The notes beneath the pieces are model-generated. The model did not search any database. It worked only from the letters and a program-made list of their open reading frames with translations, and was not told where the DNA came from. The translations under genes and the position numbers were made by a program. From Minisyncoccota bacterium (GTDB lineage: Bacteria > Patescibacteriota > Minisyncoccia > Phycocordibacterales > UBA9973), in contig JBAYHY010000001.1 of the NCBI GenBank assembly GCA_041665885.1, positions 5,715-69,714 on the forward strand: DNA of 64,000 nt, read 5' to 3'. Of this stretch, positions 17,395-46,860 are shown one piece after another. Each line of letters begins with the position of its first letter. Within the stretch, counting starts at the first letter, position 1.

Positions 17395-17422
17395 AGTATA
17401 GCACTACTACAAAAAATGTCAA
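17395..17422 (-). promoter_or_regulatory. Consensus sigma70-like promoter (TTGACA-16-TATACT) driving the GC-rich RNA candidate
   Basis: The -35 and -10 hexamers are seen directly as complements of tgtcaa (17417-17422) and agtata (17395-17400). Confidence 0.6.
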
Positions 17423-17490
17423 GCAATCCCCTTTTTTATTTATTAATGCAATTATCTTGCAACCAGGCGGGTATTATCACTCCTTTTTGC

Positions 17491-18456
17491 CTATATAATC
17501 GCATTGAATAGATATCCCGTAAGAATAATCCCGGTAGCCACTATCCCGGCGAAAATCAAAATCAATTTAATCTTCATTACTTTCTTTAAAATCATAAACT
17601 CCGGCAAAGATAAGGCGGTCACGGACATCATAAATGCAAGCGTAGTTCCGACTGAAACTCCCTTTTCAGTCAAAGCGGAAACAAGCGGGATAACTCCAGC
17701 AGCATTCGAATATAAAGGAATACCGATAAGCACAGCGAGCGGCACTGCATACCATTTATCACTTCCGGCATATTGGGCCAAAAAATCAGCCGGAACATAG
17801 CCATGTATCCAGGCTCCGATTCCAATCCCGATTAAAATATATATCCAAACTTTTTTCAATATATCCAGAGTGTACTCTTTTGCATAAGCGATTCTTTCCT
17901 TTCCCGTCATTGTCGGTAGGTCGATATTCCCATTCAATGTATTTTGATAGACAAAGGGTTCAACCAAGCCCTCTACCTTCATTTTACCGATAATTATTCC
18001 TGAGAGAATGGCAATAATAAGTCCACTGACTATATACATGAGAGCGATTTTCCAGCCAAACATTCCGAGAAGTAAAACAAGTGCCACCTCATTTATCATC
18101 GGAGAAGCGATAAGGAATGAAAATGTAGTTCCAAGAGGAACACCTGCTTGAACAAATCCTAAAAATAGTGGGATGGCGGAACAAGAGCAAAAGGGAGTAA
18201 TAATTCCTAGAAGTGAAGCAATCACATTCCCCAGGTACTTATTTTTGTGAGATAAAATCGCTCGTATTTTCTCCGGTGGTAAATATGAGCGAATGATAGA
18301 AACAAGGAAAATAATAACAGCTAGTAAAATAAATATTTTAAGTGTGTCAAAAATAAAAAAATTAACGGCGCCCGCTAAAAGAGTTTTGGGAGTAATATTA
18401 AAAACCGCATAGGTCAACCAGTCAGCAAATAATTGAATGGGATAAAAAATGCTCAT
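17491..18456 (-). CDS. DUF318/ArsP-family permease (TPFCSCS motif)
   Basis: 321 aa polytopic protein with the ITPFCSCSAIP motif characteristic of the ArsP/PF03773 family. Confidence 0.7.
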   Translation of the reverse strand: MSIFYPIQLFADWLTYAVFNITPKTLLAGAVNFFIFDTLKIFILLAVIIFLVSIIRSYLPPEKIRAILSHKNKYLGNVIASLLGIITPFCSCSAIPLFLGFVQAGVPLGTTFSFLIASPMINEVALVLLLGMFGWKIALMYIVSGLIIAILSGIIIGKMKVEGLVEPFVYQNTLNGNIDLPTMTGKERIAYAKEYTLDILKKVWIYILIGIGIGAWIHGYVPADFLAQYAGSDKWYAVPLAVLIGIPLYSNAAGVIPLVSALTEKGVSVGTTLAFMMSVTALSLPEFMILKKVMKIKLILIFAGIVATGIILTGYLFNAII

Positions 18457-33933: not shown

Positions 33934-34860
33934 ATGACATACGATTTAATTATTATCGGTGGTGGACCGGCTGGTAGCGCAGCCTCTGTTTATGCTGCCC
34001 GCAAAAGATTAAAAACACTATTTATTACCTCGGAATGGGGAGGACAAAGTGTCGTCTCGGAACAGATTTATAACTGGATTGGCTCCCCTTCCATCTCTGG
34101 TAATGATTTGGCCTCAAATTTTAAAAAGCATGTATTAGCTAATGTGGGCGAGAGCTTGGAGGTAAAAGAAGGCCAAAGAGTAAATACCATTGCGAAGTCG
34201 GGTGAAGAATTTTCTGTAAAAACGGATACCGGAGAAGAATTTTTAACTAAAACAATTTTGATTGCTACCGGTAGCGGGCGCAGAAAACTCGAAGCAAAAA
34301 ACGCGGATAAATTTGAGAACAAAGGACTCACCTATTGCGCCACCTGCGATGGCCCTCTTTTTGCAGACATGGACGTAGCTGTCATCGGTGGAGGCAATGC
34401 CGCTTTCGAAAGCGCCGCCCAACTCCTGGCTTACTGTAAATCTGTCACCCTTATAAATAGAACAGATACTTTTCGTGCGGATGCGATAACAGTTGAAAAA
34501 GTTTTAAAAAATCCCAAAATGTCGGCATTAAAAAATATAGACATTTTAGAGATAAAAGGCGACAAATTTGTAGAAGGAATTATTTATAAAGATAAGGCTA
34601 CCAGCGCTGAAAAAGAGCTCAAGGTTTCTGGTATATTTGTAGAAATCGGACAAATTCCAAACACTGCTTTCGTTAAAGACATATTACCTCTTGATAAAAT
34701 AGGCAGAATTAAGATCGACGCTTGGAACCAAAAAACAGAAGTTCCGGGTATCTGGGCAGCCGGAGATTGCACCAATGTCTTGTATCATCAGAACAACATT
34801 GCCGCCGGCGATGCTGTTCGCGCACTCGAGGACATCTACCTGGCAATCCATACGAAATAG
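33934..34860 (+). CDS. trxB: Thioredoxin-disulfide reductase
   Basis: FAD (DLIIIGGGPAGSAA) and NAD (AVIGGGNAAFE) motifs and the redox-active CATCDG are present. The start was set at MTYDL; the track start at 33919 includes a TATAAT box. Confidence 0.85.
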   Translation: MTYDLIIIGGGPAGSAASVYAARKRLKTLFITSEWGGQSVVSEQIYNWIGSPSISGNDLASNFKKHVLANVGESLEVKEGQRVNTIAKSGEEFSVKTDTGEEFLTKTILIATGSGRRKLEAKNADKFENKGLTYCATCDGPLFADMDVAVIGGGNAAFESAAQLLAYCKSVTLINRTDTFRADAITVEKVLKNPKMSALKNIDILEIKGDKFVEGIIYKDKATSAEKELKVSGIFVEIGQIPNTAFVKDILPLDKIGRIKIDAWNQKTEVPGIWAAGDCTNVLYHQNNIAAGDAVRALEDIYLAIHTK

Positions 34861-34964
34861 TTTATAAACCTATCGTATTTGACTTAATTAGCATATGCGT
34901 GTTAAGGTTTTTTAAATCACAAGTAGTTCTGTTCGACCTGACCCAACAAACGAAGGAGGGGTAA

Positions 34965-35204
34965 ATGATAACGGAAATGCGTTGGCAAAAGTTAGTGCCT
35001 GGGGAGAAAATCCTTGATGTTTCGTTAGAAATTTGGGTGGTCATCCGAGGAGTCACTCACCGCGAGCCCGCGACCATCGTCGCGCGTTCTCCTCACAATG
35101 GAGAAGAAATCCGCCTAACCTGGAGCGAAGATTGGATCTATTATGGATTGGATCCAGTCAGGGTCCTGGAGACCAATTGCATCGCGGTCGTCCAGGTGAG
35201 ATGA
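34965..35204 (+). CDS. Hypothetical small protein (GC-elevated, self-contained expression unit)
   Basis: 79 aa with a strong SD (GAAGGAGGGG-N4-ATG) and a terminator immediately downstream. It abuts the 3' end of tRNA-Ser. Confidence 0.5.
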   Translation: MITEMRWQKLVPGEKILDVSLEIWVVIRGVTHREPATIVARSPHNGEEIRLTWSEDWIYYGLDPVRVLETNCIAVVQVR

Positions 35205-35225
35205 AAAGAAATTCGCATCGGAGCT

Positions 35226-35257
35226 AGGCCCCCTGGGGCCTGGCTCTTTTATTTTTT
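35226..35257 (+). terminator. Intrinsic terminator AGGCCCC-ct-GGGGCCT + T-tract
   Basis: Seen directly. Confidence 0.7.
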
Positions 35258-35269
35258 ATATCCAAAAAG

Positions 35270-35351
35270 CGGAGGGTACAGGGCTCGAACCTGTAAGGGC
35301 TTTCGCCCGCTGGTTTTCGAAACCAGTGCATTACCATTCTGCCAACCCTCC
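35270..35351 (-). tRNA. tRNA-Ser (anticodon CGA), class II with long variable arm
   Basis: The reverse complement reads GGAGGGU...CUGGU-UUCGAAA-ACCAG, with variable arm GGGCGAAAGCCC, T-arm ACAGG-UUCGAGC-CCUGU and discriminator G. Confidence 0.8.
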
Positions 35352-35376
35352 ATGTTCTCATGTTAAAACATATTAA

Positions 35377-36552
35377 TTATTTCTGCAAAATTTTGGGCTG
35401 TAAGAAAATAAAAGTTCCCATTGCGATGAGTGCAATGAAGGCCGCGAAAATAAAAGCGTAAATAGGATTGAAAATCCACAAGAGACCGGCAATAGCTGAA
35501 GCAGGGAGATAAACGAGGCCGGTGACAAAATTATACATGCCGATGGCCGTCGCCCGCCTGTCTTGCTCAATATCAGAAATATAGGCTTTGCTTTGCGCCT
35601 CGTCGATAGCGTAGAAAAAACCAAACAAGACAAACAAAACAATTATTTCCCACCTGGCCTTCACAAAAATAAAGCCCAAAGACATTACTATATAAATTAA
35701 ATATTCCAAAACAATAATATACTTTCTACCTATCCAGTCCCCGAGTTTGCCGATCGGCACCGAAAATGCCACAAAGGAAATATTAAAGAGAGCATAAAGC
35801 AACACCACATCTTTTATGGAGAAGCCCACGTCATAAGCCCGAAGCAATAGAAAACTAAAACTAAAATATGCCAAGGAAAAAATCCCAGCCGGAATAAGAA
35901 AAAGCTTGAAGCCTTTACTCAAGGCCCCCCAAGCCTTAAATATATTCTCCCTTTCATGTGGAGTGCCCGGCCGATCCTTCATTAAACAAAGAACCGCCAC
36001 CGCTGCTACGGCGCCAACAACGGCGATAATAAAAATTATACGAAAAGTACCCACGCTCTGACCCAAATACAAAAGAATGAAATAGGCAATAAGTGGTCCG
36101 ACGACAGCTCCTGCTTTATCCATGGCCTTATGGAGACCAAAGGTGTATCCCCTGTTGGATTCTTCCGCCACGGCAGAAAGCCAGGCGTCTCTCGGAGGCC
36201 CTCGAAAGCTTTTTCCCAAACGCTCTATCACCCTAAATAAGGCAAGAGCAAAAACAGAACTCCCTAGAAGCAACATTGTTTTTGCTACCGTCGAAAAACC
36301 GTAACCGGTCATGGCCAATGGTTTTCTTTTTCCTGATTTATCAGACAACCAACCCGCAAAATAATCCAAGGAAGAAGCGGAAAAGTCCGCCATACCCTCA
36401 ATCAAACCAAGGAGCGAAGCGGAGGCGCCTACTATCACCGTAAAAAAAATCGAAAAAACAGAAAAGACAGATTCCGAACTTATGTCCGTCAAAAAACTGA
36501 CAAGGCCTAATTTCAAAACGTCCGGATCAACATTCAAAAATCTTTTTTTCAT
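35377..36552 (-). CDS. MFS transporter
   Basis: 391 aa with 12 predicted TM segments and MFS loop motifs (GWLSDKSGKRKP). Confidence 0.8.
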   Translation of the reverse strand: MKKRFLNVDPDVLKLGLVSFLTDISSESVFSVFSIFFTVIVGASASLLGLIEGMADFSASSLDYFAGWLSDKSGKRKPLAMTGYGFSTVAKTMLLLGSSVFALALFRVIERLGKSFRGPPRDAWLSAVAEESNRGYTFGLHKAMDKAGAVVGPLIAYFILLYLGQSVGTFRIIFIIAVVGAVAAVAVLCLMKDRPGTPHERENIFKAWGALSKGFKLFLIPAGIFSLAYFSFSFLLLRAYDVGFSIKDVVLLYALFNISFVAFSVPIGKLGDWIGRKYIIVLEYLIYIVMSLGFIFVKARWEIIVLFVLFGFFYAIDEAQSKAYISDIEQDRRATAIGMYNFVTGLVYLPASAIAGLLWIFNPIYAFIFAAFIALIAMGTFIFLQPKILQK

Positions 36553-36719
36553 CTTTTAATTATAACAAGAAATAATGAGTGCGGATAGATTTATATATTT
36601 ATAAATTTTTTGTCTCCTTGACGTTAACTTCCGATGTGTGCATAATATACATACTAAGTTCTTTCCAACGAGGTTCTGCGGATCTAAGGGTCCTTAAAAC
36701 AGGAAAAAAGGAGGAGACG

Positions 36720-37088
36720 ATGCTGCTAACGTCAGAGGTTCTTAGAACATTCAAGGAAGGTACCATGGTGATGGAAAACAAGAAGAACGAGTACTTCGCT
36801 CGAGGCAAGGTGATGAACCTCACAGTCACCGGCAATAAACTCGAGATAACCTTCCTTCTTTTTGCCTTCGGGTGGACCACGGGGAGGATTGACTTCCCCA
36901 CAATGCCACAAGAATGGGTCCTGGCCGTCGACAAGCGCTTTCTTTCGTGGGTGGTGGACCTAAACAACTACACGTCCAAGGACACCGACCCTCTGTCGGG
37001 GGATATTTCCTTCGACGAAGAAGGAAATTTCACGATGGTCTCCCTAGACCACAATCAAAAAATCTTGTTTCGCCCACTAGCCAAGTAG
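36720..37088 (+). CDS. Hypothetical small protein (GC-elevated, own promoter/SD/terminator)
   Basis: 122 aa from the ATG preceded by AAGGAGG-N6. The promoter TTGACG-17-CATAAT lies at 36626-36654 and a terminator follows. The track ORF starts at 36579. Confidence 0.45.
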   Translation: MLLTSEVLRTFKEGTMVMENKKNEYFARGKVMNLTVTGNKLEITFLLFAFGWTTGRIDFPTMPQEWVLAVDKRFLSWVVDLNNYTSKDTDPLSGDISFDEEGNFTMVSLDHNQKILFRPLAK

Positions 37089-37117
37089 AGCTATCGGGCC
37101 AAACAAAAATGACAAAA

Positions 37118-37148
37118 CCCCCGCCAACCCAGGCGGGGGATATTTTTT
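37118..37148 (+). terminator. Intrinsic terminator CCCCCGCC-aaccca-GGCGGGGG + T7
   Basis: Seen directly. Confidence 0.7.
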
Positions 37149-37388
37149 GGGACCCTACCGGACTTCTTTCCCTACGGGAACAGTATACCTTTTCAAATAG
37201 TTAATTTTGTATGCTTCGCATTCTGAATTTATGTGGTCACAAGTTACTAAATAAAATTTTTCGATATCCTCAAATTTTATGTAAGTACTTGCCGACCCCA
37301 GCTCGGCTATTCGCGTACTCGCGAATTATGCCTGTGCCTTCACAAACGGCTCGCAAATAAAGCAGTTTATTTGGCTTTGCGCCGTTTG

Positions 37389-37460
37389 TGACCCTACCGG
37401 GAATCGAACCCGAATTACCGGCTTGAAAAGCCGATGTCCTAACCGTTAGACGATAGGGCC
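37389..37460 (-). tRNA. tRNA-Glu (anticodon UUC)
   Basis: Identical to the tRNA-Glu(CUC) at 16391-16462 except in the anticodon arm. The anticodon loop is UUUUCAA. Confidence 0.85.
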
Positions 37461-37494
37461 AATTTCACACACACAAATATCTTACTCCTCTATT

Positions 37495-37556
37495 CTATTC
37501 AGCTTTTCAAAAAGCCGATGTCCACTATGTTCTAACTTGGTTAGACGATAGGGCCA
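37495..37556 (-). repeat. tRNA-Glu 5'-half pseudo-copy directly upstream (same strand) of tRNA-Glu(UUC)
   Basis: The minus strand reads GGCCCUAUCGUCUAAC..ACAUCGGCUUUUUGAAAAGC, with the first 16 nt identical to the tRNA 5' end. The upstream flank AATATAACATTTTT is also shared with the tRNA-Glu(CUC) locus. Confidence 0.6.
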
Positions 37557-37615
37557 ATACAAAAAATATAACATTTTTAAACTTAAATGCAAAACTTAAA
37601 AAAATATAAAATCTA

Positions 37616-38389
37616 GTGTATAATCATGAGCACATGAACAAAAAAGATACAATAAAAATAATCATCCTGGCAGCAGGCAAGGGTACGAGGATGAAAAGCG
37701 AATTACCAAAAGCTCTAGTAAGAGTCAAAGGCAAGGCAATGATTAGACACCTACTTGATTCTATTGATAAATCCAAAATAAATAGTAAGCCGGTGATCGT
37801 TGTTGGTTTCGAAAAAGAAAAAATAATGGCCGAGCTCGGTCCGAATTATGATTATGCTGTGCAAAAAGAGCTACTGGGAACGGGGCACGCTGTCCAAAGC
37901 GCAGAAGAATTACTCCGGGACAATTCAGCTCATGTGCTCGTCTTGTATAGCGATAGTCCATTTGTAAGCCCGGAAACCATTGATCGTTTGATGGATAAAC
38001 ACCTCGCATCAAATAAAAAAATAACAATGGCCACAATCAAACTTGAGAATTTTGACGACTGGAGAGCCTTTTTTTACAAAAGTTTCTCTCGGATTATCAG
38101 AAACGAAAATAACGAAATCGTGCGCGATGTCCAATTCCGAGACACCAATATGGAAGAAAAGACGATTACGGAAGTTAACCCATGCTACTTTATCTTTGAG
38201 TCCGGATGGCTTTGGAAAAAATTAAAAACCCTAAAAACAGACAACGACCAAAATCAATATTACCTTACCGATTTAATCAAAATAGCCATGGAAGAAGGAG
38301 AAAAAATAGAATCCGTAAACATTGATCCCTTGGAAGGTCTTTCCGTGAACTCAAAAGAAGAGCTTGAACTACTGGAAAAATTAAAATAG
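37616..38389 (+). CDS. Sugar-phosphate nucleotidyltransferase (GlmU N-terminal domain-like)
   Basis: The IIILAAGKGTRMKSELPKAL motif is present. The likely true start is MNKKD at 37634. Confidence 0.7.
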   Translation: MYNHEHMNKKDTIKIIILAAGKGTRMKSELPKALVRVKGKAMIRHLLDSIDKSKINSKPVIVVGFEKEKIMAELGPNYDYAVQKELLGTGHAVQSAEELLRDNSAHVLVLYSDSPFVSPETIDRLMDKHLASNKKITMATIKLENFDDWRAFFYKSFSRIIRNENNEIVRDVQFRDTNMEEKTITEVNPCYFIFESGWLWKKLKTLKTDNDQNQYYLTDLIKIAMEEGEKIESVNIDPLEGLSVNSKEELELLEKLK

Positions 38390-38432
38390 AAAATTACTTG
38401 ACAAAGAAAATGAACAGGTATATCATTCAAAC

Positions 38433-38705
38433 ATGCGCTTGAATGATTTAGCCAAACTTATGCGAATAGCAGGAGATAAAAGCAGGCTCAACATCCTGTG
38501 CGTTCTTTTCAGCAATAAAAAGGTCTGTGTATCTGATATTGCGAAAGACCTAGACATGAGCGTCGCCACCGCCTCGCACCACCTGCGCGTTATGTCCAAG
38601 GAAAAACTAGTCATTCCTGTCAGAGAAGGCAAAAGAGTGTGTTATGCCCTACCCCAGAAACCCTTTGCCCAAGATTTAAAAAAATTCGTTTGTAAATATA
38701 AATAG
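38433..38705 (+). CDS. ArsR/SmtB family transcriptional regulator
   Basis: 90 aa with a wHTH (VSDIAKDLDMSVATASHHLRVM). Confidence 0.8.
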   Translation: MRLNDLAKLMRIAGDKSRLNILCVLFSNKKVCVSDIAKDLDMSVATASHHLRVMSKEKLVIPVREGKRVCYALPQKPFAQDLKKFVCKYK

Positions 38706-38745
38706 CGTCGAAATATTAGCAGTTAACATTAATTAAAATAAATAT

Positions 38746-38985
38746 ATGGAGAATAAAAAAGTTATAATATATTCAACCACCACTTGCCCATATTGTGTAA
38801 TGGCAAAGGATTACTTTAAGAAAAAGGGCGTGGCCTACGAAGACAAAAATGTCGGCGTGGATAGAGCGGCCGGACAAGAAATGGTAACAAAAAGCGGACA
38901 AATGGGTGTCCCCGTTATCGACATAAATGGTGAAATTATAGTTGGGTTTCAACCAGAAGTATTCGAGGAATTATTAAATAAATAA
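38746..38985 (+). CDS. Glutaredoxin-like protein (CPYC)
   Basis: 79 aa with a TCPYC motif and the C-terminal GVPVIDINGEIIVGF. Confidence 0.8.
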   Translation: MENKKVIIYSTTTCPYCVMAKDYFKKKGVAYEDKNVGVDRAAGQEMVTKSGQMGVPVIDINGEIIVGFQPEVFEELLNK

Positions 38986-38993
38986 AAATAAAT

Positions 38994-40214
38994 ATGCAAA
39001 ATCCTTTTCAAAATGCAATGGCGCAGTTAGACAAGGTCGCAAAGATTAAAGACTTTGGCAATGAATATATCTCCCGTTTTAGGCAACCAAATCGTGACAT
39101 TAGAATATCTATCCCAGTAAAAATGGACGATGGTTCGTTGAAGATATTCGAGGGATATCGAGTGGAATACAATGATGCCCTGGGCCCCTACAAAGGAGGA
39201 ATCCGCTATCATCACGACACCGAAATAAATGAGGTGAAGGCACTCGCTTTCTGGATGACAATAAAATGCGCCGTCGCAGGAATCCCTATGGGTGGAGGCA
39301 AGGGAGGAATCACCGTCGACCCAAAAGAATTATCTAAAGGTGAACTGGAGAGGCTTTCTCGCGGCTGGGTGCAAGGACTTTCTGATATATTGGGCCCCCA
39401 CAAAGACGTTCCTGCTCCGGATGTAAACACCACCCCAGAGATAATGGCTTGGATGTCTGACGAATTTGAAAAAATTACCGGAGACAAGACTAGAGCAACC
39501 TTCACGGGCAAGCCAATAGAAAATGGCGGTTCGGAGGGACGTGGCGCAGCTACGGGGCTCGGAGGATTTTATGTTTTTGATTCATTGCGTGAACAAATCG
39601 GGCTACCGGTAAAATGTAAGGTCGCGATTCAGGGTTTTGGAAATGTCGGCAGCAATGCCGCCCGCATCTTTACGGAAAACGGGCATACTGTTATCGCTGT
39701 TTCTGATTCAAAGAGCGCAATCGTGAAAGAAGATGGGCTTAATTTAGAAGAAGTTGAGGCACACAAAAAAACTACCGGTAGTTTGAAAGACTTTCCGGGA
39801 GCAAAAAATATTACAAACGCTGAGTTGCTTGAGCTCTCCTGCGACCTCTTGGTACCGGCTGCATTTGAAAACGTAATAACTAGTGAAAATGCCGATAAAA
39901 TCAAGGCTACGGCGATTATGGAGCTCGCCAATGGCCCGATAAACCCTGAGGCAGACGAGGTTTTGTTCAAGAAAAACATCGCCGTCATCCCAGACGTTTT
40001 AGCTAATTCGGGCGGAGTCACTGTTTCCTATTTCGAGTGGGATCAAAATCTTAAAAATGAATCCTGGACGGAAAAAGAAGTAAACGAAAAACTATTGCCA
40101 ATGATGGACGCCGCTGCCCAAAAAATATTCGACAAGGCAAAAGAAAACAATACACATTTGCGTATGGGTGCTTTCATCCTAGCCCTTGAAAGAATTAAGG
40201 AAAAAATGCTATAA
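38994..40214 (+). CDS. gdhA: Glutamate dehydrogenase (Glu/Leu/Phe/Val dehydrogenase family)
   Basis: The catalytic region PMGGGKGG and the NAD(P) motif GFGNVG are present. Confidence 0.9.
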   Translation: MQNPFQNAMAQLDKVAKIKDFGNEYISRFRQPNRDIRISIPVKMDDGSLKIFEGYRVEYNDALGPYKGGIRYHHDTEINEVKALAFWMTIKCAVAGIPMGGGKGGITVDPKELSKGELERLSRGWVQGLSDILGPHKDVPAPDVNTTPEIMAWMSDEFEKITGDKTRATFTGKPIENGGSEGRGAATGLGGFYVFDSLREQIGLPVKCKVAIQGFGNVGSNAARIFTENGHTVIAVSDSKSAIVKEDGLNLEEVEAHKKTTGSLKDFPGAKNITNAELLELSCDLLVPAAFENVITSENADKIKATAIMELANGPINPEADEVLFKKNIAVIPDVLANSGGVTVSYFEWDQNLKNESWTEKEVNEKLLPMMDAAAQKIFDKAKENNTHLRMGAFILALERIKEKML

Positions 40215-40224
40215 ATATATAGCG

Positions 40225-40366
40225 GCGCGGTTAGCTCAGTTGTAGCGACGCCTGAAATACGCTGTAATTTTCATTTTATGATAAGATGAAAATTTGCGCG
40301 GTTAGCTCAATTGTAGCGACGCCTGAAATACGCTGTAATTTTCATTTTATGATAAGATGAAAATTT
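40225..40366 (+). repeat. Two tandem 71-nt repeats, each a degraded copy of the tRNA-Val 5' half plus a 9-bp-stem hairpin (AATTTTCAT...ATGAAAATT)
   Basis: Each unit (40225-40295 and 40296-40366) starts with gcgcggttagctca(g/a)ttg, which is identical to the tRNA-Val 5' end. Confidence 0.7.
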
Positions 40367-40439
40367 GCGCGGTTAGCTCAGTTGGTAGAGCGACCCCTTG
40401 ACGTGGGGTAGGCCACAGGTTCGAATCCTGTATCGCGCA
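40367..40439 (+). tRNA. tRNA-Val (anticodon GAC)
   Basis: The acceptor stem is GCGCGGU, the anticodon loop UUGACGU, and the T-loop UUCGAAU. The 3' trailer is ACCCA. Confidence 0.85.
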
Positions 40440-40465
40440 CCCACAAGATAAGGTAGAATTTATTT

Positions 40466-41620
40466 ATGAAAATTTTAAGCATAGAAACATCTTGCGATGA
40501 CACGGGAATAAGCATAATAGAAGCAAAAGGAGGCATTGAAGATGCTTCTTTTAAAGTTTTGGCAAATAATGTATCTTCACAAATTGACATTCACATCCCC
40601 TACGGAGGGGTATTTCCGGCGCTTGCCAAAAGAGAACATATAAAAAACTTACCTATTATTTTAGAAAAAACTCTTAAGGAGGCAAAACTAAATAAAAAAA
40701 CAAAACCTGTCGATCTTATCACGGTGACTTATGGTCCGGGTCTAGAGCCGACCCTCTGGACCGGGATAACTTTTGCGAAAGAACTTGCACAAAAATGGAA
40801 TGTGCCGGTAATGCCTGTGAATCATATGGAGGGACACATATTTTCTGTCTTTGTAAATAATAAAAAAACTTTCAAAATTCCAAAAATAAAATATCCGGTT
40901 CTTTCCTTGCTCGTATCTGGGGGCCATACGGAACTTGTCCTAACAAAAAAATGGATGAATTATGAAATCATCGGGCAAACCCTAGACGATGCTGTTGGTG
41001 AAGCTTTTGACAAGGCTGCAAGGATGCTCGGCCTCCCCTATCCGGGCGGACCACAAATTTCCATGCTGGCAGAATTGCTAAGAAAAAAAGGAAAACAATC
41101 TTTAGGGGGTGTCTCGCAGGCTGGCGAGCCGAGAGGCAGCGCTCCGCGAGCACGCGGAGACAGCGACCCCAAAAAGATTGATTTTTCTTTTTCTCTCCCC
41201 CGCCCGATGCTGCACAGCAAAAATTTTGATTTTTCTTTTTCCGGACTCAAAACAGCAGTTCTATATTTAGTGAGAGACCTTGGCTCTGTGGAAAAACTAA
41301 GCAAAAAGACAAAAGCGAAAATAGCCCTTGAGTTCGAGAATGCTGCGATAGAATCCCTGGTCCACAAGACAACCAAGGCGATTGAGAAATACAAAATCAA
41401 AACCCTTATCGTCGCAGGCGGAGTTTCGGCAAACAAATATTTAAGAGATGAGATGCAAAAAATTACCGACAAAAATGTAAAACTTTTATTACCTCAAAAA
41501 GAGCTCACCGGAGATAACTCCTTAATGATAGGTGTCGCTGGATATTTAAATTATATAAAAAACAAAAAAAGGGTTCCTCCGGCAAATAACATAAAAGCGA
41601 CTGGTAATTTAAGGCTATAA
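40466..41620 (+). CDS. tsaD: tRNA N6-adenosine threonylcarbamoyltransferase TsaD, carrying an in-frame GC-rich ~30-codon insertion
   Basis: The TsaD N-terminus (ILSIETSCDDTGISII), the HMEGH motif and DFSFSGLKTAV are present. An extra GKQSLGGVSQAGEPRGSAPRARGDSDPKK lies between GGP and the FPRPM-equivalent. Confidence 0.9.
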   Translation: MKILSIETSCDDTGISIIEAKGGIEDASFKVLANNVSSQIDIHIPYGGVFPALAKREHIKNLPIILEKTLKEAKLNKKTKPVDLITVTYGPGLEPTLWTGITFAKELAQKWNVPVMPVNHMEGHIFSVFVNNKKTFKIPKIKYPVLSLLVSGGHTELVLTKKWMNYEIIGQTLDDAVGEAFDKAARMLGLPYPGGPQISMLAELLRKKGKQSLGGVSQAGEPRGSAPRARGDSDPKKIDFSFSLPRPMLHSKNFDFSFSGLKTAVLYLVRDLGSVEKLSKKTKAKIALEFENAAIESLVHKTTKAIEKYKIKTLIVAGGVSANKYLRDEMQKITDKNVKLLLPQKELTGDNSLMIGVAGYLNYIKNKKRVPPANNIKATGNLRL

Positions 41621-41637
41621 TGTGATAATATTGAAAG

Positions 41638-43779
41638 ATGAATGAGAAGCTGCTTAAACCCTATGACCCAAAAACAACCGAAGAAAGAATCTATAAGCTT
41701 TGGGAGGAAAGTGGTTTTTTTAACCCAGACACATGCATAGAAAATGGAATAACCAAAACGGACGCCGAACCTTTCTCGATAATAATGCCACCGCCAAATG
41801 CTAATGGCAGATTACATGCAGGTCACGCCCTGTTCGTAACTCTTGAAGATATTATTACCCGATACCACCGCATGAAAGGTGATCGCACGCTTTGGGTTCC
41901 CGGAGCGGATCACGCAGGCTTTGAAACTCAAATAGTTTACGAACGTAAACTGGAGAATGAAGGAAGATCTCGATTCGACATGAAACCTGAGGATCTGTAT
42001 AAAGAGATTTATGATTTTACCATTGCCAATAAAAAATTCATGGAAGATGACGTTCGCAGACTCGGGGCCTCCTGCGACTGGTCCAGAGAGAAATTTACTC
42101 TAGATCCGGAGATTGTTAAAACGGTTCAAATTACTTTTGATAAAATGTTCAAAGACGGACTGGTTTACCGTGGAGATCGGATCGTCAACTGGTGCGCTAA
42201 ACATCAAACTTCCCTCTCTGAAGTTGAAACAGAATTCAAAGAACGAATAGAACCATTTTATTATCTCCAATACGGTCCATTCGTCATAGGGACGACCAGG
42301 CCCGAAACAAAATTTGGAGATAAATATGTCGTCATGCACCCAAAGGATGAAAGATACAGTGAGTATAAAGACGGACAAAAAATATCCCTGGAATGGATTA
42401 ATGGTCCTATCACGGCCGCCATCATTAAGGATGAAAGTATTGATATGGAATTCGGCACAGGGGTGATGACGATTACTCCCTGGCACGACCAGATTGACTT
42501 CGACATCGCAGAAAGACACCATCTGGAAAAAGAACAAATTATAGACTGGAAAGGAAAGCTCCTCCCGGTGGCGGGAGAATTTGAGGGTCTCCACATTTCC
42601 AAGGCACGCCCTAAAATTATAGAAAAACTAAAAGAAAAAGGGCTTCTGGTAAAAATCGATGAATCCTACAAGCACAATGTGAAAGTGTGTTTTAAGTGCA
42701 ATACTATCATAGAGCCACAAATTAAGGACCAATGGTTCGTCAAAATGCGCCCACTCGCGGATAGGGCGCTCGAAGCAGTGGCCAGCGGAAAAATAAAGTT
42801 TTATCCGGAAAACTATAAAAAGATATTCCAGTATTGGATGAACAACACAATTGACTGGAACATCTCAAGACAAATCGTCTGGGGTATTCCCATTCCAGCA
42901 AAAATATGTACGACCTGCAAGAAGGGATATTCTGACTTGAAGGATGAAGTAAAGAAATGTACTTGCGGAGGAGAGCTCCGAAAAGACACAGACACCTTTG
43001 ATACCTGGTTTTCATCAGGACAATGGACTCTTTTAGCTTTAGGGTATCCGGAAACGAAAGATTTAAATATTTATCATCCGACCAACGTCATGGAAACGGG
43101 GCGGGATTTGATTTTCAAATGGATTCCGAGAATGGTTATCTTTGCCTTATATCTTCGCGAAGAGATTGCTTTTAAAAATGTCTATCTTCATGGTCTAGTC
43201 AACGATGAGAAGGGCGAGAAAATGAGTAAATCCAAGGGTAATGTAGTCAATCCAATCGAGCTTATAGATGTCTTTGGCGCCGACGCCCTACGCATGGCAC
43301 TCGTCGTAGGAAACACCCCGGGCACCGATTTATCCCTCTCTCGAGATAGAATTAAAGGATATAAAAATTTTACAAACAAAATTTGGAATGCTACTCGTTT
43401 CGTATTACAAAATACTGAGGGTTTTGAGGTTAAAGATAACCCTGATTATGACGAGGAAGATAAAAAATCAAACGAGGAATTGCAAAAACTAATCAACGAA
43501 ATTACTAAAGAAATGGATGAATACAAATTTTATATTGTATCGGAAAAACTTTATCATTATTTCTGGCATATTTTCGCTGATATCATTATCGAAAGATCGA
43601 AGAAAAAAATATCAGAGAACAATAATGCTGATTCCGCAAAAGCGTTATTGTATACACATCTTGTTACCCTCCTCAAGGTCCTGCATCCTTTTGTTCCATT
43701 CGTCACAGAAGAAATCTGGTCGATATTGCCTGAAAAAAATAAAAAACATTTAATGGTTGAAAAATGGCCCCTGTTATAG
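41638..43779 (+). CDS. valS: Valine--tRNA ligase (short form lacking long C-terminal coiled coil)
   Basis: The HIGH motif (PNANGRLHAGH), the KMSKS motif, and a CP1 editing domain are present. Confidence 0.9.
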   Translation: MNEKLLKPYDPKTTEERIYKLWEESGFFNPDTCIENGITKTDAEPFSIIMPPPNANGRLHAGHALFVTLEDIITRYHRMKGDRTLWVPGADHAGFETQIVYERKLENEGRSRFDMKPEDLYKEIYDFTIANKKFMEDDVRRLGASCDWSREKFTLDPEIVKTVQITFDKMFKDGLVYRGDRIVNWCAKHQTSLSEVETEFKERIEPFYYLQYGPFVIGTTRPETKFGDKYVVMHPKDERYSEYKDGQKISLEWINGPITAAIIKDESIDMEFGTGVMTITPWHDQIDFDIAERHHLEKEQIIDWKGKLLPVAGEFEGLHISKARPKIIEKLKEKGLLVKIDESYKHNVKVCFKCNTIIEPQIKDQWFVKMRPLADRALEAVASGKIKFYPENYKKIFQYWMNNTIDWNISRQIVWGIPIPAKICTTCKKGYSDLKDEVKKCTCGGELRKDTDTFDTWFSSGQWTLLALGYPETKDLNIYHPTNVMETGRDLIFKWIPRMVIFALYLREEIAFKNVYLHGLVNDEKGEKMSKSKGNVVNPIELIDVFGADALRMALVVGNTPGTDLSLSRDRIKGYKNFTNKIWNATRFVLQNTEGFEVKDNPDYDEEDKKSNEELQKLINEITKEMDEYKFYIVSEKLYHYFWHIFADIIIERSKKKISENNNADSAKALLYTHLVTLLKVLHPFVPFVTEEIWSILPEKNKKHLMVEKWPLL

Positions 43780-44483
43780 GTAATCCTCAAATTTTAATTT
43801 TAGCTTTTGCCCTAGGGATTATTCCTTCTCTTTTGTGGTTGTGGTTCTGGTTAAAAGAGCAAGAGGATCCGGAACCAATGGGGCTACTCACTGCCACGTT
43901 TATTATGGGGATGATTGCTGTTATTTTCGTTTTACCTGTCCAAAAATTTATACAAAGCAGTGTAAGTTCTGCCAATGTTGATCTCGTCCTCTGGGCCGGA
44001 ACAGAGGAAATATTCAAGTATCTAGCCGTTTTGGTTGTTCTTTACAAAACAAATTATGCCGACAGGCCCATAGATTGGCCCATTTATCTTATCACCGCTG
44101 CCCTTGGCTTTGCCACCCTTGAAAATGCCCTATTTTTAATCAAACCCCTTTCTACCTTAAATGAAACCACTAGTCTGCTTACCGTAGCCTCACTCGGGCA
44201 ACTCCGTTTTTTGGGCTCCACCCTACTGCACACCATCTCAAGCGGAACAGTCGGCATCGCAATAGGAATTTCTTTTTACTTGGAGGGGTGGAAGAAAAAA
44301 TGGTATCTTTTTGCCGGCTTTGGCGTGGCTATCGCCTTGCATACTGTCTTTAATTTTTTTATAATAAGAAATAATGGCAATGATTTTTTGAAGGTGTTTG
44401 CCTTTCTGTGGGTAATCACAATTATCATTATGTTGCTTTTTGAAAAAGTAAGAAGGATGAATGAACAATTATTAATTAACTAA
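43764..44483 (+). CDS. PrsW-family intramembrane metalloprotease
   Basis: Polytopic protein with EEIFKY (EExxK), FATLEN, and HTVFNFF (HxxxN) motifs. Confidence 0.6.
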   Translation: MAPVIGNPQILILAFALGIIPSLLWLWFWLKEQEDPEPMGLLTATFIMGMIAVIFVLPVQKFIQSSVSSANVDLVLWAGTEEIFKYLAVLVVLYKTNYADRPIDWPIYLITAALGFATLENALFLIKPLSTLNETTSLLTVASLGQLRFLGSTLLHTISSGTVGIAIGISFYLEGWKKKWYLFAGFGVAIALHTVFNFFIIRNNGNDFLKVFAFLWVITIIIMLLFEKVRRMNEQLLIN

Positions 44484-44490
44484 TTAAATT

Positions 44491-44979
44491 ATGGGAAATA
44501 AAAAAAGAAGTTTTTTTGAAAGATTAACGGGAAGCGTCGACGCCGAAGAAGAACAAATCGATCCAAAGAGGGACTATTTACTAAAAGGAATCCGGGGCGA
44601 GAAGGATGATAAAAAACCCGGCAGTGAATGGGAAGAGGAAGAAAACGAGGAAGCAGAACTATCAATTGACGTTTTTCAAACTCCAACAGATATTATTATT
44701 CAGACAATGGTCGCAGGAGTAAAGCCAGATGATCTAGAGCTATCTGTCGCCCGTGACACCGTCACCATTCGTGGTAAAAGAGAAGAATCCAGAACCATTG
44801 ACGAAGATAATTATTTTGTAAAAGAACTTTATTGGGGTAAATTTTCCCGCACATTGTCGCTACCGGCAGAGGTGGAGCCAGAAGAAGTGGAAGCGACAGA
44901 AAGACATGGCCTACTCACCATAAAGATTAGAAAGGTAGATAAAGAAAAGAAAAGCACAGTAAAAATAAAATCTATCTAG
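44491..44979 (+). CDS. Hsp20/alpha-crystallin family small heat-shock protein
   Basis: The ACD core (LSIDVFQTPTDIIIQ...GLLTIKI) is present. Confidence 0.9.
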   Translation: MGNKKRSFFERLTGSVDAEEEQIDPKRDYLLKGIRGEKDDKKPGSEWEEEENEEAELSIDVFQTPTDIIIQTMVAGVKPDDLELSVARDTVTIRGKREESRTIDEDNYFVKELYWGKFSRTLSLPAEVEPEEVEATERHGLLTIKIRKVDKEKKSTVKIKSI

Positions 44980-44994
44980 TATAAAAATAAAAAA

Positions 44995-45018
44995 TACCTC
45001 ACAAGGAGGTATTTTTTT
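44995..45018 (+). terminator. Intrinsic terminator TACCTC-acaag-GAGGTA + T7
   Basis: Seen directly. Confidence 0.7.
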
Positions 45019-45019
45019 G

Positions 45020-45091
45020 TGCCTGGGGGGTGAATCGCACACCCGACCTGTCCCTCTTCAGGGGAACGCTCTACTACTGAGCTACCCAGGC
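45020..45091 (-). tRNA. tRNA-Phe (anticodon GAA), slightly atypical (G55, terminal anticodon-stem mismatch)
   Basis: The reverse complement reads GCCUGGG...CUGAAGA...GGGUG-UGCGAUU-CACCC-CCCAGGC-A. Confidence 0.7.
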
Positions 45092-45094
45092 AAT

Positions 45095-45352
45095 CTAATT
45101 TTTAAAATTTTGGAACAAAGAACCTGCGTTGTCTAAATTTACTTTAACCTCGTTATATACCTTCATCGCTTGGTCCATATATGGCTGAATAAAGTAAAAA
45201 GCCCCAACAGAAATGCCCAAAATCAGTATCCAATATATCACACTCATAACTTTAGACCAAAGCATGGAGCGCCTTAAGGAATGCAACATCCTATTGTTTT
45301 CCTCCTCAAGAGCATAGGTGTCTTCAAGTAACTTTTTGGATTCAGGATCCAT
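45095..45352 (-). CDS. Hypothetical small membrane protein
   Basis: 85 aa with one TM (VMSVIYWILILGISVGAFYF). Confidence 0.4.
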   Translation of the reverse strand: MDPESKKLLEDTYALEEENNRMLHSLRRSMLWSKVMSVIYWILILGISVGAFYFIQPYMDQAMKVYNEVKVNLDNAGSLFQNFKN

Positions 45353-45425
45353 GGATATAATTTAACATATTTTCTAAAAAATACCAATTCCAAATAAGCT
45401 TTTTATGTGTTAGATTATAGACATA

Positions 45426-45497
45426 GCCCTCATAGTTCAATGGATAGAACAGTTCCGTCCTAAGGAATAGATCCCCGTTCGATTCGGAGTGAGGGCA
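45426..45497 (+). tRNA. tRNA-Arg (anticodon CCU); one C-A mismatch in T-stem
   Basis: The sequence reads GCCCUCA...GUUCC-GUCCUAA-GGAAU...UUCGAUU...UGAGGGC-A. Confidence 0.65.
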
Positions 45498-45501
45498 CAA
45501 A

Positions 45502-45762
45502 CTATTTGTTTTTATATACTAAGGCTAAAATTAATACCGCCCAAGCGCCAATAACACCGAGAGTGAAACTTAAAATTATTGGTTTATCGCTTAGGACAAT
45601 TCCATACACCAGCCAAGTTAGGGTTCCTAAAGAAAAAATAACAAATGTCGGTATGGAAATATTTGTAGATGTTTTGTTTTTCCAAATCTTGTATGCCTGG
45701 GGATAATACCCCAATGACATAATAATCCCCATTATTGTCACAAAAATTTTAAACGCTTCCAT
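45502..45762 (-). CDS. SemiSWEET / PQ-loop family sugar transporter
   Basis: 86 aa with 3 TM segments and the PQ motif (GYYPQAYKIWKNK). Confidence 0.65.
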   Translation of the reverse strand: MEAFKIFVTIMGIIMSLGYYPQAYKIWKNKTSTNISIPTFVIFSLGTLTWLVYGIVLSDKPIILSFTLGVIGAWAVLILALVYKNK

Positions 45763-45764
45763 GT

Positions 45765-46367
45765 TTATTTTTTATTTCTCGTTACCCACCATTCATTTTT
45801 TTTGTCACTAAACCACCAATCATCCGAATCTATCTTTATAATCTTTTCTCCTAAAATTTTACCCTCCTTCGTCTTTAACCTCTTTATCGCTGACGGTATC
45901 CAAGTCTTCGCCCTTTCATTTCCTATATCAAACTGTTCTTTAAGGGACATTATAAATTCAAGGTTGTCAGCATCCTTCGCGAGTAATGATTCTTTGGTCT
46001 TTCTCGCTTCGTATTCCCTCACGACAGAAGCGATTTTATTTCCAAAAGGAAGTGTCGCGAGAAGATCCGCCAGTGCTTTGTTTTCATCTGACTTAACATA
46101 TTTCTGATGAACGTAATTTAAATCGGAAGTTCTCGCTTCTGCAAAATCATGGAACATGCACATTTGTAGTACCTTTGATACATCCACGTCTCCAGCCATT
46201 TGTGCCAGGGAAAAACCGATATAACTGACACGATTTAGGTGCTCAGCGATGCTTTGATTGCCACTACCTAAAAAGAAAAAACCACTCCTTGGAGTTTTTG
46301 CCAGCATTCCAGACTCAAATAGAAAGTTAACTACTGCATCCACTTCTTTTGTTTGAAGTTTTTTCAT
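45765..46367 (-). CDS. HD-domain phosphohydrolase (YfbR-like 5'-deoxynucleotidase family)
   Basis: HD-domain motifs are present (SIAEHLNRVSYIG ... HDFAEARTSDL). Confidence 0.7.
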   Translation of the reverse strand: MKKLQTKEVDAVVNFLFESGMLAKTPRSGFFFLGSGNQSIAEHLNRVSYIGFSLAQMAGDVDVSKVLQMCMFHDFAEARTSDLNYVHQKYVKSDENKALADLLATLPFGNKIASVVREYEARKTKESLLAKDADNLEFIMSLKEQFDIGNERAKTWIPSAIKRLKTKEGKILGEKIIKIDSDDWWFSDKKNEWWVTRNKK

Positions 46368-46400
46368 GTCAGATATATCAAAACTATTATTCGTAAAAAA

Positions 46401-46634
46401 TTACAAACCCAGCAATTTTTCAATTCTTTGTTTATCAAAACCTACTGTTAGCTCTCCGTCAATGATGATAACTGGCACCCCCATTTGGCCGCTCTTCTCT
46501 ATCATTTCCTTCCTTTTTTCAAGGTCGCTGGCAACGTCATGGTCCGTAAAGACAATGCTATTGGCAGTGAAAAAATCTTTTGCCATATGACAAAAGTGGC
46601 AGGTTGGGGTTGAATAAATTGTTACGTTTTTCAT
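46401..46634 (-). CDS. Glutaredoxin-like protein (NrdH-like, CHFC)
   Basis: The VTIYSTPTCHFCHMAKDFF motif is present. The start was set at MKNV; the track ORF extends to 46667. Confidence 0.75.
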   Translation of the reverse strand: MKNVTIYSTPTCHFCHMAKDFFTANSIVFTDHDVASDLEKRKEMIEKSGQMGVPVIIIDGELTVGFDKQRIEKLLGL

Positions 46635-46715
46635 AATACTTTTATGATTACTTTTTAATATCTTCATTATAGCATGCTTGTCAAGCAGACAAATAAGCGA
46701 TATATTTCATTATAT

Positions 46716-46781
46716 GCGGTCGTAGTTTAGTGGTAGAATGAGTATTTCTAAGTCTGTGAAGGTAGTTTGAAAACAGTGCTT
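46716..46781 (+). repeat. tRNA-Gly 5'-half pseudo-copy directly upstream of tRNA-Gly(CCC)
   Basis: The stretch gcggtcgtagtttagtggtagaatgagt matches the tRNA-Gly 5' end gcgggattagtttagtggcagaatgagt at 24 of 28 positions. No complementary 3' acceptor strand follows. Confidence 0.6.
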
Positions 46782-46852
46782 GCGGGATTAGTTTAGTGGC
46801 AGAATGAGTCCTTCCCAAGGATTAGGCGGGGTTTCGATTACCCCATCCCGCA
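46782..46852 (+). tRNA. tRNA-Gly (anticodon CCC)
   Basis: The sequence reads GCGGGAU...AGUCC-UUCCCAA-GGAUU...GGGGU-UUCGAUU-ACCCC-AUCCCGC-A. Confidence 0.8.
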
Positions 46853-46860
46853 CAAAATAA

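Follow-up and report, generated by a model that had tools for sequence, protein, structure and literature searches.

Truncated same-strand copies of tRNA 5' ends upstream of tRNA-Val and other tRNA genes in Nomurabacteria

This study concerns the tRNA-Val(GAC) locus of a Minisyncoccota bacterium (GTDB lineage Bacteria; Patescibacteriota; Minisyncoccia; Phycocordibacterales; UBA9973) within a stretch of 64,000 nucleotides, hereafter the window, which corresponds to forward-strand positions 5,715 to 69,714 of contig JBAYHY010000001.1 in GenBank assembly GCA_041665885.1. The genes gdh, tRNA-Val, tsaD and valS follow each other at this locus (Table 1), and between gdh and the tRNA gene lie two tandem 71-nt units, each of which begins with a truncated copy of the 5' part of that same tRNA. 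tRNA-Val, tsaD and valS are located on the same strand and their synteny is kept in relatives; judged from this arrangement, tsaD and valS probably belong to one transcription unit with tRNA-Val. The bacterium belongs to Candidatus Nomurabacteria (Patescibacteria), and truncated copies of this kind are a real, systematic, polar and lineage-wide feature of Nomurabacteria tRNA genes.

The tandem repeat and the promoter at tRNA-Val

Tandem Repeats Finder (TRF) reported a repeat at positions 40225-40384 with a period of 71, 2.3 copies, 97% matches and a score of 313. The two units are identical at 70 of 71 positions, the sole difference being unit position 15, which is G in unit 1 and A in unit 2. 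The match to the tRNA 5' end comprises 18/18 nt in unit 1 and 17/18 nt in unit 2, and with gaps the likeness extends to tRNA position 33 (29/32 columns). Each unit consists of a diverged copy reaching tRNA position ~33-40, followed by an AT hairpin spacer of 30-32 nt with exact 9-bp arms, AATTTTCAT and ATGAAAATT, and 11 nt between them; the hairpin-bearing insert between the repeat blocks measures 53 nt. Among the open reading frames (ORFs) around the window tRNA loci, none was found between the Val repeats. When each window tRNA was compared with its 500-nt flanks by local alignment, with 100 shuffles per tRNA, tRNA-Val scored 41 against its upstream flank and the best shuffle 22. The initial annotation of this DNA had described two 71-nt tandem units that start with the tRNA-Val 5' end, derive from the tRNA's own 5' part and end in a perfect 9-bp hairpin with an 11-nt loop. 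The sequence itself, TRF and the unit comparison agree with this description, and the hairpin arms are exact in both units. The contig stems from a short-read metagenome assembly (a k141 contig, k-mer assembly), and the tandem copy number is that given by the assembly only.

The native promoter of the tRNA-Val unit is embedded in the last codons and the stop of gdh and ends 9 nt before unit 1. In over 40 related species that lack copies, TTGAAA-N17/18-TATAAA is found 8-12 nt before tRNA-Val, often in the final gdh codons. Unit 1 sits where the tRNA itself begins in these relatives, and the intact gene of the window is displaced by 142 nt. A consensus promoter scan misses the Val box; its second hexamer ends in A. 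Both units additionally contain an extended -10-like box, TGaTAAGAT, at the canonical -10-to-tRNA spacing. On their sequence, these boxes are possible secondary start signals, to which we attach little weight. A per-unit promoter as a general rule was rejected: the box holds for the window, and none was seen on reading the other arrays.

A 26-nt spacer (40440-40465) separates tRNA-Val from tsaD in the window. In many relatives (e.g. L055, L001, L004, L018, L034 and L047; L-numbers denote the related loci introduced below) a single nucleotide lies between the tRNA-Val discriminator and the tsaD start codon (...GCGCAC, then ATGAAAATT). Excision of the tRNA at such a junction would yield a tsaD-valS mRNA with no leader, an arrangement akin to tRNA punctuation.

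Recurrence in the window and in related genomes

Three of the seven tRNAs of the window, Val, Glu(UUC) and Gly(CCC), have a same-strand upstream 5' copy and the other four have none; no significant downstream or opposite-strand copy was found in the 500-nt flanks of any of the seven. The Glu and Gly loci carry one 5' copy each, both with a score of 37, above all shuffles (best of 100: 26 for Glu, 23 for Gly), and the recurrence proposed earlier for these two loci is thus confirmed. Linkers between copy and gene, including those at Glu and Gly, contain no consistent promoter. The acceptor strand of the window Gly copy reads gcggtcg versus GCGGGAT in the functional gene, i.e. the two are different tRNA-Gly alleles. 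The 13-nt copy of the tRNA-Glu 3' end surfaced solely in a targeted search. Neither locus is adjacent to its synthetase gene.

A TsaD search yielded 160 syntenic related loci, 80 from species genomes and 80 from metagenomes, all of them from Candidatus Nomurabacteria/Paceibacteria (Patescibacteria) with TsaD identities of 55-78%. ARAGORN was run on every locus, each tRNA was aligned to its 300-nt flanks with neighbouring tRNAs masked, and an alignment score of at least 26 was taken as a partial copy. The resulting set comprised 428 non-redundant tRNA loci. Same-strand partial copies were found upstream of 32 of 426 tRNA genes and downstream of 21 of 421; opposite-strand copies number 0 upstream and 0 downstream. 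About 8% of the sampled tRNA genes (about 1 in 12) are accompanied on the same strand by copies of their own ends. Almost every upstream copy starts with tRNA position 1 and stops between positions ~20 and ~40, and downstream copies mostly run from near position 56 through to the tRNA 3' end, with 3'-end duplications of 13-20 nt. The breakpoints fall in D, anticodon and T loops, and the isotypes concerned include at least Val, Phe, Glu, Gly, Ser and Arg. The suggestion of a systematic process rather than chance is borne out by this lineage-wide, strictly same-strand pattern of 5' pieces upstream and 3' pieces downstream. The flank alignment that had been proposed as a check, run here on the loci of relatives, gave the 32 upstream copies, so similar 5' copies exist beyond the three window loci. 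Literature searches returned no description of this arrangement in bacteria. An outer stem formed by an upstream 5' copy and a downstream 3' copy was considered and rejected, because most loci with a 3' copy have no 5' copy. Phage contigs were uninformative as a negative control, since they provided only 19 tRNAs, some of them false calls.

Orthologous loci carry 0, 1, 2 or at least 3 copies among relatives; most species have none, and the copy families are patchy on the TsaD tree. Tandem arrays are present in several independent assemblies (Table 1). At L027-Phe, L137-Val and L121-Ser the ~12-24 nt immediately preceding the gene, containing the upstream -10 region, are repeated as well (21/24, 11/12 and 23/24 identical, respectively), and the duplicated unit therefore spans the -10 region together with the 5' part of the gene. 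In most cases the copy and the tRNA of one species have the same acceptor strand (gccgagg, gctgaga, gccaaga, gggcggt), as expected if unequal recombination homogenises direct repeats (concerted evolution); the acceptor strand of the copy has decayed in L088, L083 and L124. Unequal recombination would also expand, contract or precisely delete arrays, which favours an origin by local duplication and would account for the patchy distribution on the TsaD tree. The three tandem 136-nt leader units upstream of tRNA-Ser(CGA) in L121 (3880-4290, minus strand) each open with the first 12 nt of tRNA-Ser, then a CUGC-loop hairpin with the loop motif of the 3' element described below, and more hairpins.

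Look-ups with the exact TsaD and GDH proteins gave the source contig as sole match, without strain variants, and no relative closer than 82% TsaD identity was found among 5.8 billion proteins. The 82% relative has no tRNA-Val upstream of tsaD, and L307, with 77% TsaD identity, has a Val copy of type B, unlike the type A of the window.

Table 1. Features of the window and of related loci. Empty cells: no value given.
Feature	Locus and position	Strand	Remarks
gdh	window 38994-40214	+	
Native promoter of tRNA-Val unit	window 40186-40215	+	TTGAAA 40186-40191, 18-nt spacer, TATAAA 40210-40215
Unit 1, 3'-truncated pseudo-tRNA-Val	window 40225-40295	+	sequence, TRF, alignment
Unit 1, T5 block	window 40225-40242	+	18/18 identical to tRNA 5' end
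Unit 1, decayed D/anticodon part	window 40243-40265	+	
Unit 1, AT hairpin spacer	window 40266-40295	+	
Hairpin arm AATTTTCAT	window 40266-40274, 40337-40345	+	
Extended -10-like box TGaTAAGAT	window 40279-40287	+	ends 8 nt before next unit
Hairpin arm ATGAAAATT	window 40286-40294, 40357-40365	+	
Unit 2	window 40296-40366	+	TRF; abuts tRNA at 40367
TGaTAAGAT, second copy	window 40350-40358	+	ends 8 nt before tRNA-Val +1
Functional tRNA-Val(GAC)	window 40367-40439	+	Rfam tRNA 69.3 bits; ARAGORN gives 40366-40443
tsaD	window 40466-41620	+	NCBIfam TsaD 351.7 bits
valS	window 41638-43779	+	NCBIfam valine-tRNA ligase 793.8 bits
Glu promoter-like site	window 37565-37593	-	TTTGCA-17-TATATT, TG in front; 9 nt upstream of Glu copy
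Pseudo-5' part of tRNA-Glu(UUC)	window 37502-37555	-	first 16 nt identical to tRNA
Glu linker	window 37461-37501	-	non-conserved
Functional tRNA-Glu(UUC)	window 37388-37460	-	ARAGORN, Rfam
Structured 3' trailer of tRNA-Glu	window 37149-37387	-	divergent relative of the 3' structured RNA
13-nt copy of tRNA-Glu 3' end	window 37149-37161	-	CCGGTAGGGTCCC; closes trailer
Terminator-like hairpin after Glu trailer	window 37118-37139	-	
Gly promoter-like site	window 46678-46706	+	TTGTCA-17-TATATT; 9 nt upstream of Gly copy
Pseudo-5' part of tRNA-Gly plus linker	window 46716-46781	+	pseudo-5' part 46716-46755
Functional tRNA-Gly(CCC)	window 46782-46853	+	ARAGORN, Rfam
Tandem arrays, near-identical units	window; L137; L043		Val 2x71; Val 2x74; Val at least 3x41
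Tandem arrays, near-identical units	L013; L068; L121		Gly 2x63; Phe 2x72; Ser 3x136
Tandem arrays	L010; L014		Val, 2 copies each
Copy family Val type A	window, L143, L020, L095, L051		tagctcag(t)tgtagcgacgcctgaaatacgc
Copy family Val type B	ten loci plus L307		ttagctgttttggtaggt...
Copy family Glu A	six species		two common indels
Copy family Gly A	nine loci		...gagtatttctaagtct
Derived motif TAGCTGTTTTGGTAGGTAACG, tRNA-Phe(GAA)	L009, L027/L100, L059, L065, L068, L070		
Derived motif TAGCTGTTTTGGTAGGTAACG, tRNA-Val	L010, L014, L027, L043, L083, L088, L137, L138, L307		
3' structured RNA	L003:16151-16396, L013:5418-5542, L054:15783-15910, L055:14951-15072, L045:15628-15743		
3' structured RNA	L088:772-891, L020:182-298, L079:14668-14795, L073:15478-15591		also others
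Nested tRNAs	L059:~6150-6330		
Nested tRNAs	L062:~15240-15400, L070:~17420-17620, L079:~15200-15460	-	
Palindrome in tsaD	L112:10063-10090		same site in L116, L134, L135, L089
Palindromes in pseudo-tRNA D-loops	L010, L072, L023, L026		
Double hairpin	L019, L106, L130, L039, L060 (inside protein-coding ORF); L052, L012, L018, L046		

Conservation and structure of the copies

The pseudo-unit of the window Val array occurs in single-copy form in four other species (the further members of Val type A in Table 1). Between species, identity is 70-81% in the derived cores, ~39% in right-anchored linkers and ~70-75% in tsaD coding DNA. The earlier description of the units as degraded copies is therefore only partly apt: they have diverged from the tRNA, but they do not appear to be simply decaying, as the cross-species conservation of their derived parts is close to that of coding DNA.

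All copy families retain the acceptor strand and a D-like hairpin. The Glu leader is predicted to fold into an acceptor-like stem around a perfect D-like hairpin, with another hairpin after it (z = -2.0); across six species 95.7% of the stem is paired and one compensatory A-U to G-C change occurs, and its covariation is not significant (82/500 shuffles reach the observed value). A conserved fold for the Val copies was rejected, the predicted structures being inconsistent between species, and the Gly copies have no conserved fold (Gly leader z = +0.5). From these predictions, a structured-RNA function is possible for the Glu leader and unsupported for Val.

At tRNA-Val and tRNA-Gly loci of relatives (L004, L018, L025, L028, L041, L050 and others) the -10 box is nearly fixed 8-10 nt from +1; with this spacing, canonical loci should therefore give precursors with almost no 5' leader. 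The tRNA-Glu genes in relatives have leaders of 5-30 nt. Because the copies start just after promoters and the linkers lack a consistent promoter, the copies are most simply read as precursor 5' leader. Bacteria of the Candidate Phyla Radiation (CPR) possess RNase P RNA, in diverged forms (PMC8172020), and removal of such a leader by RNase P would therefore be plausible.

In relatives, a conserved structured RNA of ~115-130 nt lies immediately downstream of tRNA genes (Arg, Gly, Val, Phe, Glu). From its 5' end onwards it comprises the complement of the acceptor 3' strand, a CUGC-loop hairpin, the complement of the T-stem 3' strand and two more hairpins, and it closes with 13-20 nt that repeat the tRNA 3' end exactly. 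RNAalifold gave 26 pairs, 19 of them with compensatory changes, and a covariance model found ~20 non-redundant copies, each at most ~40 nt downstream of a same-strand tRNA where upstream sequence was present. L003 contains two such elements in tandem. The arms of the L073 and L063 elements match the adjacent tRNA, and there the distal copy of the tRNA 3' end is another allele or decayed. Rfam searches returned tRNAs only, with no T-box, for window positions 34000-48000 (E <= 1), and tRNAs only for L121, L003 and L014 (E <= 5). Having no Rfam match, the 3' structured RNA is a candidate new RNA family.

Nested tRNAs occur at four related loci. A whole tRNA with inverted repeats around it lies in the D-loop or anticodon loop of an interrupted tRNA of the same isotype and a different allele. 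In L070 an inner tRNA-Gly occupies the anticodon loop of an outer tRNA-Gly, with 8-bp terminal inverted repeats TTCTGATA/TATCAGAA and a CCAAG/GCAAG flanking duplication (4-5 bp); by its sequence, this insert resembles a miniature transposable cassette carrying a tRNA. In L062, L079 and L059 the inner tRNAs are placed in the D-loop of the outer tRNA, with inverted repeats only. These AT-rich genomes also contain small GC-rich palindromic insertions, both in pseudo-tRNA D-loops and in-frame in protein genes. One type has the form CTTG-CCCCGCC-loop-GGCGGGG-TGAA (~28 nt), and the other pairs CCCCGAC..GTCGGGG with AGCCGAC..GTCGGCT. TsaD of L112 acquires the residues HPARTGGAR through such a palindrome. 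The palindromes are reminiscent of Rickettsia palindromic elements.

Origin and possible role of the copies

With moderate confidence, and starting from the observed anatomy of the copies, their position relative to the promoter, polarity, recurrence and conservation, we read them as 3'-truncated pseudogene copies that arose by partial tandem duplication, were amplified by unequal recombination, and would be transcribed as a leader and removed by RNase P. The first event would have been a local tandem duplication of the first ~40 nt of the tRNA-Val gene; no other kind of partial duplication preserves both the promoter and an intact gene, and the mirror-image event would yield 3' pieces downstream. 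The unit may then have multiplied as the 14-18-nt direct repeats recombined unequally or slipped during replication. The same recombination would keep the repeat blocks identical to the gene and could precisely delete copies, giving a patchy distribution. Transcription from TTGAAA-18-TATAAA would start at copy 1 and the copies would form a 142-nt 5' leader of the tRNA-Val-tsaD-valS transcript, which RNase P would free by cutting at +1 of the sole copy able to fold as a tRNA; further start sites might come from the TGnTAAGAT box, which precedes the following copy by 8 nt. The initial annotation had offered site-specific recombination scars, promoter or leader duplication, and tRNA-half-like small RNAs; the second of these fits best, as copy 1 lies at the canonical tRNA start and the unit includes the -10 region in L027-Phe, L137-Val and L121-Ser.

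Several observations weigh against a simple duplication origin. The conservation of the derived parts, about 80% identical between species with 57-78% TsaD identity, set against ~39% in the linkers, is unlike that of a neutral decaying duplicate. The derived D-arm motif TAGCTGTTTTGGTAGGTAACG, the core of Val type B, is common to tRNA-Val and tRNA-Phe copies; its TATGCTG variant is found in both, and the Val and Phe copies of L068 both have GATAACG. Ectopic conversion, selection for the motif and a common cassette were the options considered for this sharing. Copy and functional gene are different alleles in the window Gly locus, L010, L021 and L072, which points to replacement by incoming DNA rather than in-place duplication. 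Four loci (L059, L062, L070, L079) have a whole tRNA inserted in another tRNA. The likeness of the 3' end of the unit to the downstream flank of the tRNA and to the start of tsaD (GATAAG and ATGAAAATTT in common) is not significant (p ~0.17), and a derivation of the 71-nt unit from a duplicated whole tRNA plus the tsaD start was rejected. The conserved derived parts, the Val/Phe motif and the allele mismatches suggest leader selection, horizontal spread of a small cassette bounded by conserved flanks, or replacement by incoming tRNA DNA and, together with the nested loci, they keep a leader function and a tRNA cassette alive as readings.

The nested loci and small palindromes indicate that a route of cassette insertion or replacement exists in the lineage, and for this reason it is kept as the main rival, albeit one that we consider unlikely. 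The upstream pieces would be remnants of a resident tRNA interrupted by incoming DNA with a complete tRNA, the array having been amplified later; the vehicle would be a miniature cassette with terminal inverted repeats, or foreign DNA entering via homology-facilitated illegitimate recombination, and the functional gene would be the newcomer. The nested loci, the allele mismatches, the same left-hand motif after tRNA nt 12 in Val and Phe copies, the many GC-rich palindromic insertions, including those in pseudo-tRNA D-loops and tsaD, and the patchiness of the families on the TsaD tree agree with such a history. It is less easily reconciled with a Val repeat block that is identical to the gene, with the absence of terminal inverted repeats and target-site duplications around the window Val, Glu and Gly tRNAs, and with the lack of recognisable integrase, transposase or recombinase genes among the ORFs around the window tRNA loci and of integrase or transposase genes in two neighbour loci with called genes. 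Moreover, the Val and Phe copies are colinear with their own tRNAs (CGA versus CGC after the common motif), so the motif is not a foreign end, and tsaD next to the tRNA has none of the raised identity of recent-transfer tracts. Some weight, if clearly a minor one, goes to a function of the copies as RNA, a reading that does not conflict with a duplication origin: the copies might serve as a structured leader, a 5'-tRNA-half-like small RNA, or a mimic of the tRNA 5' end that modulates precursor folding or processing. At Val such a mimic might modulate tRNA-Val-tsaD-valS, e.g. via binding of the valine-tRNA ligase (ValRS) by analogy with thrS operator mimicry, valS being in the same gene string as tRNA-Val. 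Coding-level conservation of the derived parts beside random linkers, the acceptor strand and D-like hairpin kept by every family, the well-paired Glu leader stem and the clear structure of the 3' counterpart, with arms complementary to the duplicated tRNA 3' end and compensatory changes in 19 of 26 pairs, all favour a functional RNA, and the 5'-half size and conservation of the copies keep the idea of tRNA-half-like small RNAs alive. Nevertheless, the Glu covariation does not reach significance, Val and Gly copies lack a conserved fold, the acceptor strand decays in three loci, the Glu and Gly loci are not beside synthetase genes, and the copies are absent from most orthologous loci and hence dispensable.

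Site-specific recombination scars, the first of the explanations originally offered, we regard as very improbable. The copies would then be attL/attR-type scars left by tyrosine-integrase elements (prophages or islands) that had entered the tRNA gene with a replacement 5' part and had subsequently been deleted. A tRNA segment directly repeated on both sides of foreign DNA is the classic integrase signature (e.g. Williams 2002), and the breakpoints in D, anticodon and T loops and the 13-20-nt downstream duplications of 3' ends would suit it. The DNA between the repeats, however, is noncoding and 0-130 nt long, no integrase was recognised around the window tRNA loci, none of the 160 loci (2 Mb of related DNA) has a long element between copy and gene or a family core far from its own tRNA, and three family cores searched in the 2.9 million viral contigs of IMG/VR gave 0, 34 and 109 matches, short 15-16-mers of which 0/143 lie in tRNA context. 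Tyrosine integrases normally duplicate the 3' part of a tRNA, not the 5' part, and repeated independent shrinkage of whole elements to ~50 nt is implausible. An assembly artefact is more remote still, although the locus is on one contig only, from a k-mer assembly (k141), and tandem repeats below k can be mis-counted: the one-base difference anchors the two units, the single-copy pseudo-unit is found in L143, L020, L095 and L051, and arrays occur in independent assemblies from other projects. Tests for further known arrangements failed, namely for a split or permuted tRNA, since an intact tRNA (69 bits) adjoins the pieces, and for a CRISPR-like array, since the whole unit repeats, its 'spacer' part included. 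Some tRNA genes of Patescibacteria are known to contain group I introns (PMC13011429); no intron-like sequence was detected at the present loci.

The closest precedent is found in plastids, where the trnL-F spacer contains arrays of 1-7 tandem partial copies of trnF(GAA), 32-73 bp long, directly 5' of the functional gene (PMC3786074). These arrays occur in Brassicaceae, Solanaceae, Asteraceae and others, are clade-specific and variable in copy number, and have been attributed to illegitimate or unequal recombination (PMC3786074). Both systems comprise head-to-tail, same-strand partial copies directly 5' of an intact gene, beside sigma-70-type promoter motifs and with a copy number that varies among relatives. 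The plastid copies, however, centre on the anticodon domain and mostly lack acceptor strands, whereas those of Nomurabacteria begin exactly at +1. The latter furthermore span at least six isotypes (Val, Phe, Glu, Gly, Ser, Arg) in a bacterial phylum, have a mirror-image 3' duplication linked to a structured RNA, and include derived sequences conserved over deep species splits. By analogy, the Val array may be filed with the plastid trnF-type pseudogene arrays, differing in start, isotypes, 3' mirror and conservation.

Other systems are more distant. The attL and attR sites of tyrosine integrases are likewise direct repeats of part of a tRNA, one of them within the intact gene, with breakpoints in loops; here we find no element or integrase, the 5' part, a spacing of tens of nt and tandem arrays. 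Disrupted tRNA genes of Archaea and red algae include the split tRNAs of Nanoarchaeum as well as permuted and multi-intron tRNAs (PMC3978253). They also encode separate 5' pieces, and some related loci have a loop-interrupted tRNA with a helix-flanked insert, but in Nomurabacteria, a bacterial lineage, an intact gene stands beside each piece and no matching orphan 3' half exists. With the tandem P1/P2 promoters of rRNA and tRNA operons the Val array shares serial potential start signals and a -10-like box at canonical distance; unlike there, the repeat includes part of the structural gene, and the box is not general in the arrays of relatives. As in the E. coli thrS operator and T-box leaders, a tRNA-like leader would stand on a transcript that includes the cognate synthetase gene (valS). 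However, there is no Rfam T-box match, the mimic consists of the 5' part only with an altered anticodon loop, and similar copies occur at tRNAs unlinked to synthetase genes.

Genes for tRNAs are among the most constrained sequences of a genome, and Patescibacteria genomes are very small, with little spare DNA. The copy-bearing tRNA loci are either hot spots of unusual recombination or carry RNA elements, in leaders and trailers, that have escaped recognition. Both readings bear on tRNA annotation, since partial copies and nested genes can be mis-called, and on the assembly of CPR genomes, in which repeats lie at tRNA loci. The copies also offer a testable entry point to the making and regulation of tRNA in CPR bacteria. 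Going further, Nomurabacteria may build tRNA-end mimics into precursors as functional modules, an idea that is speculative and in our judgement unlikely. A 5' piece, with acceptor strand and D-like hairpin at the transcript start, and the 3' structured RNA, with arms that pair with the duplicated tRNA 3' end, would together govern the folding, the processing or the stability of the precursor, or would give rise to tRNA-half-like small RNAs, and the tandem Val units would be an amplified instance. If true, tRNA biogenesis in the Candidate Phyla Radiation would involve a cis-acting system of a sort not described before.

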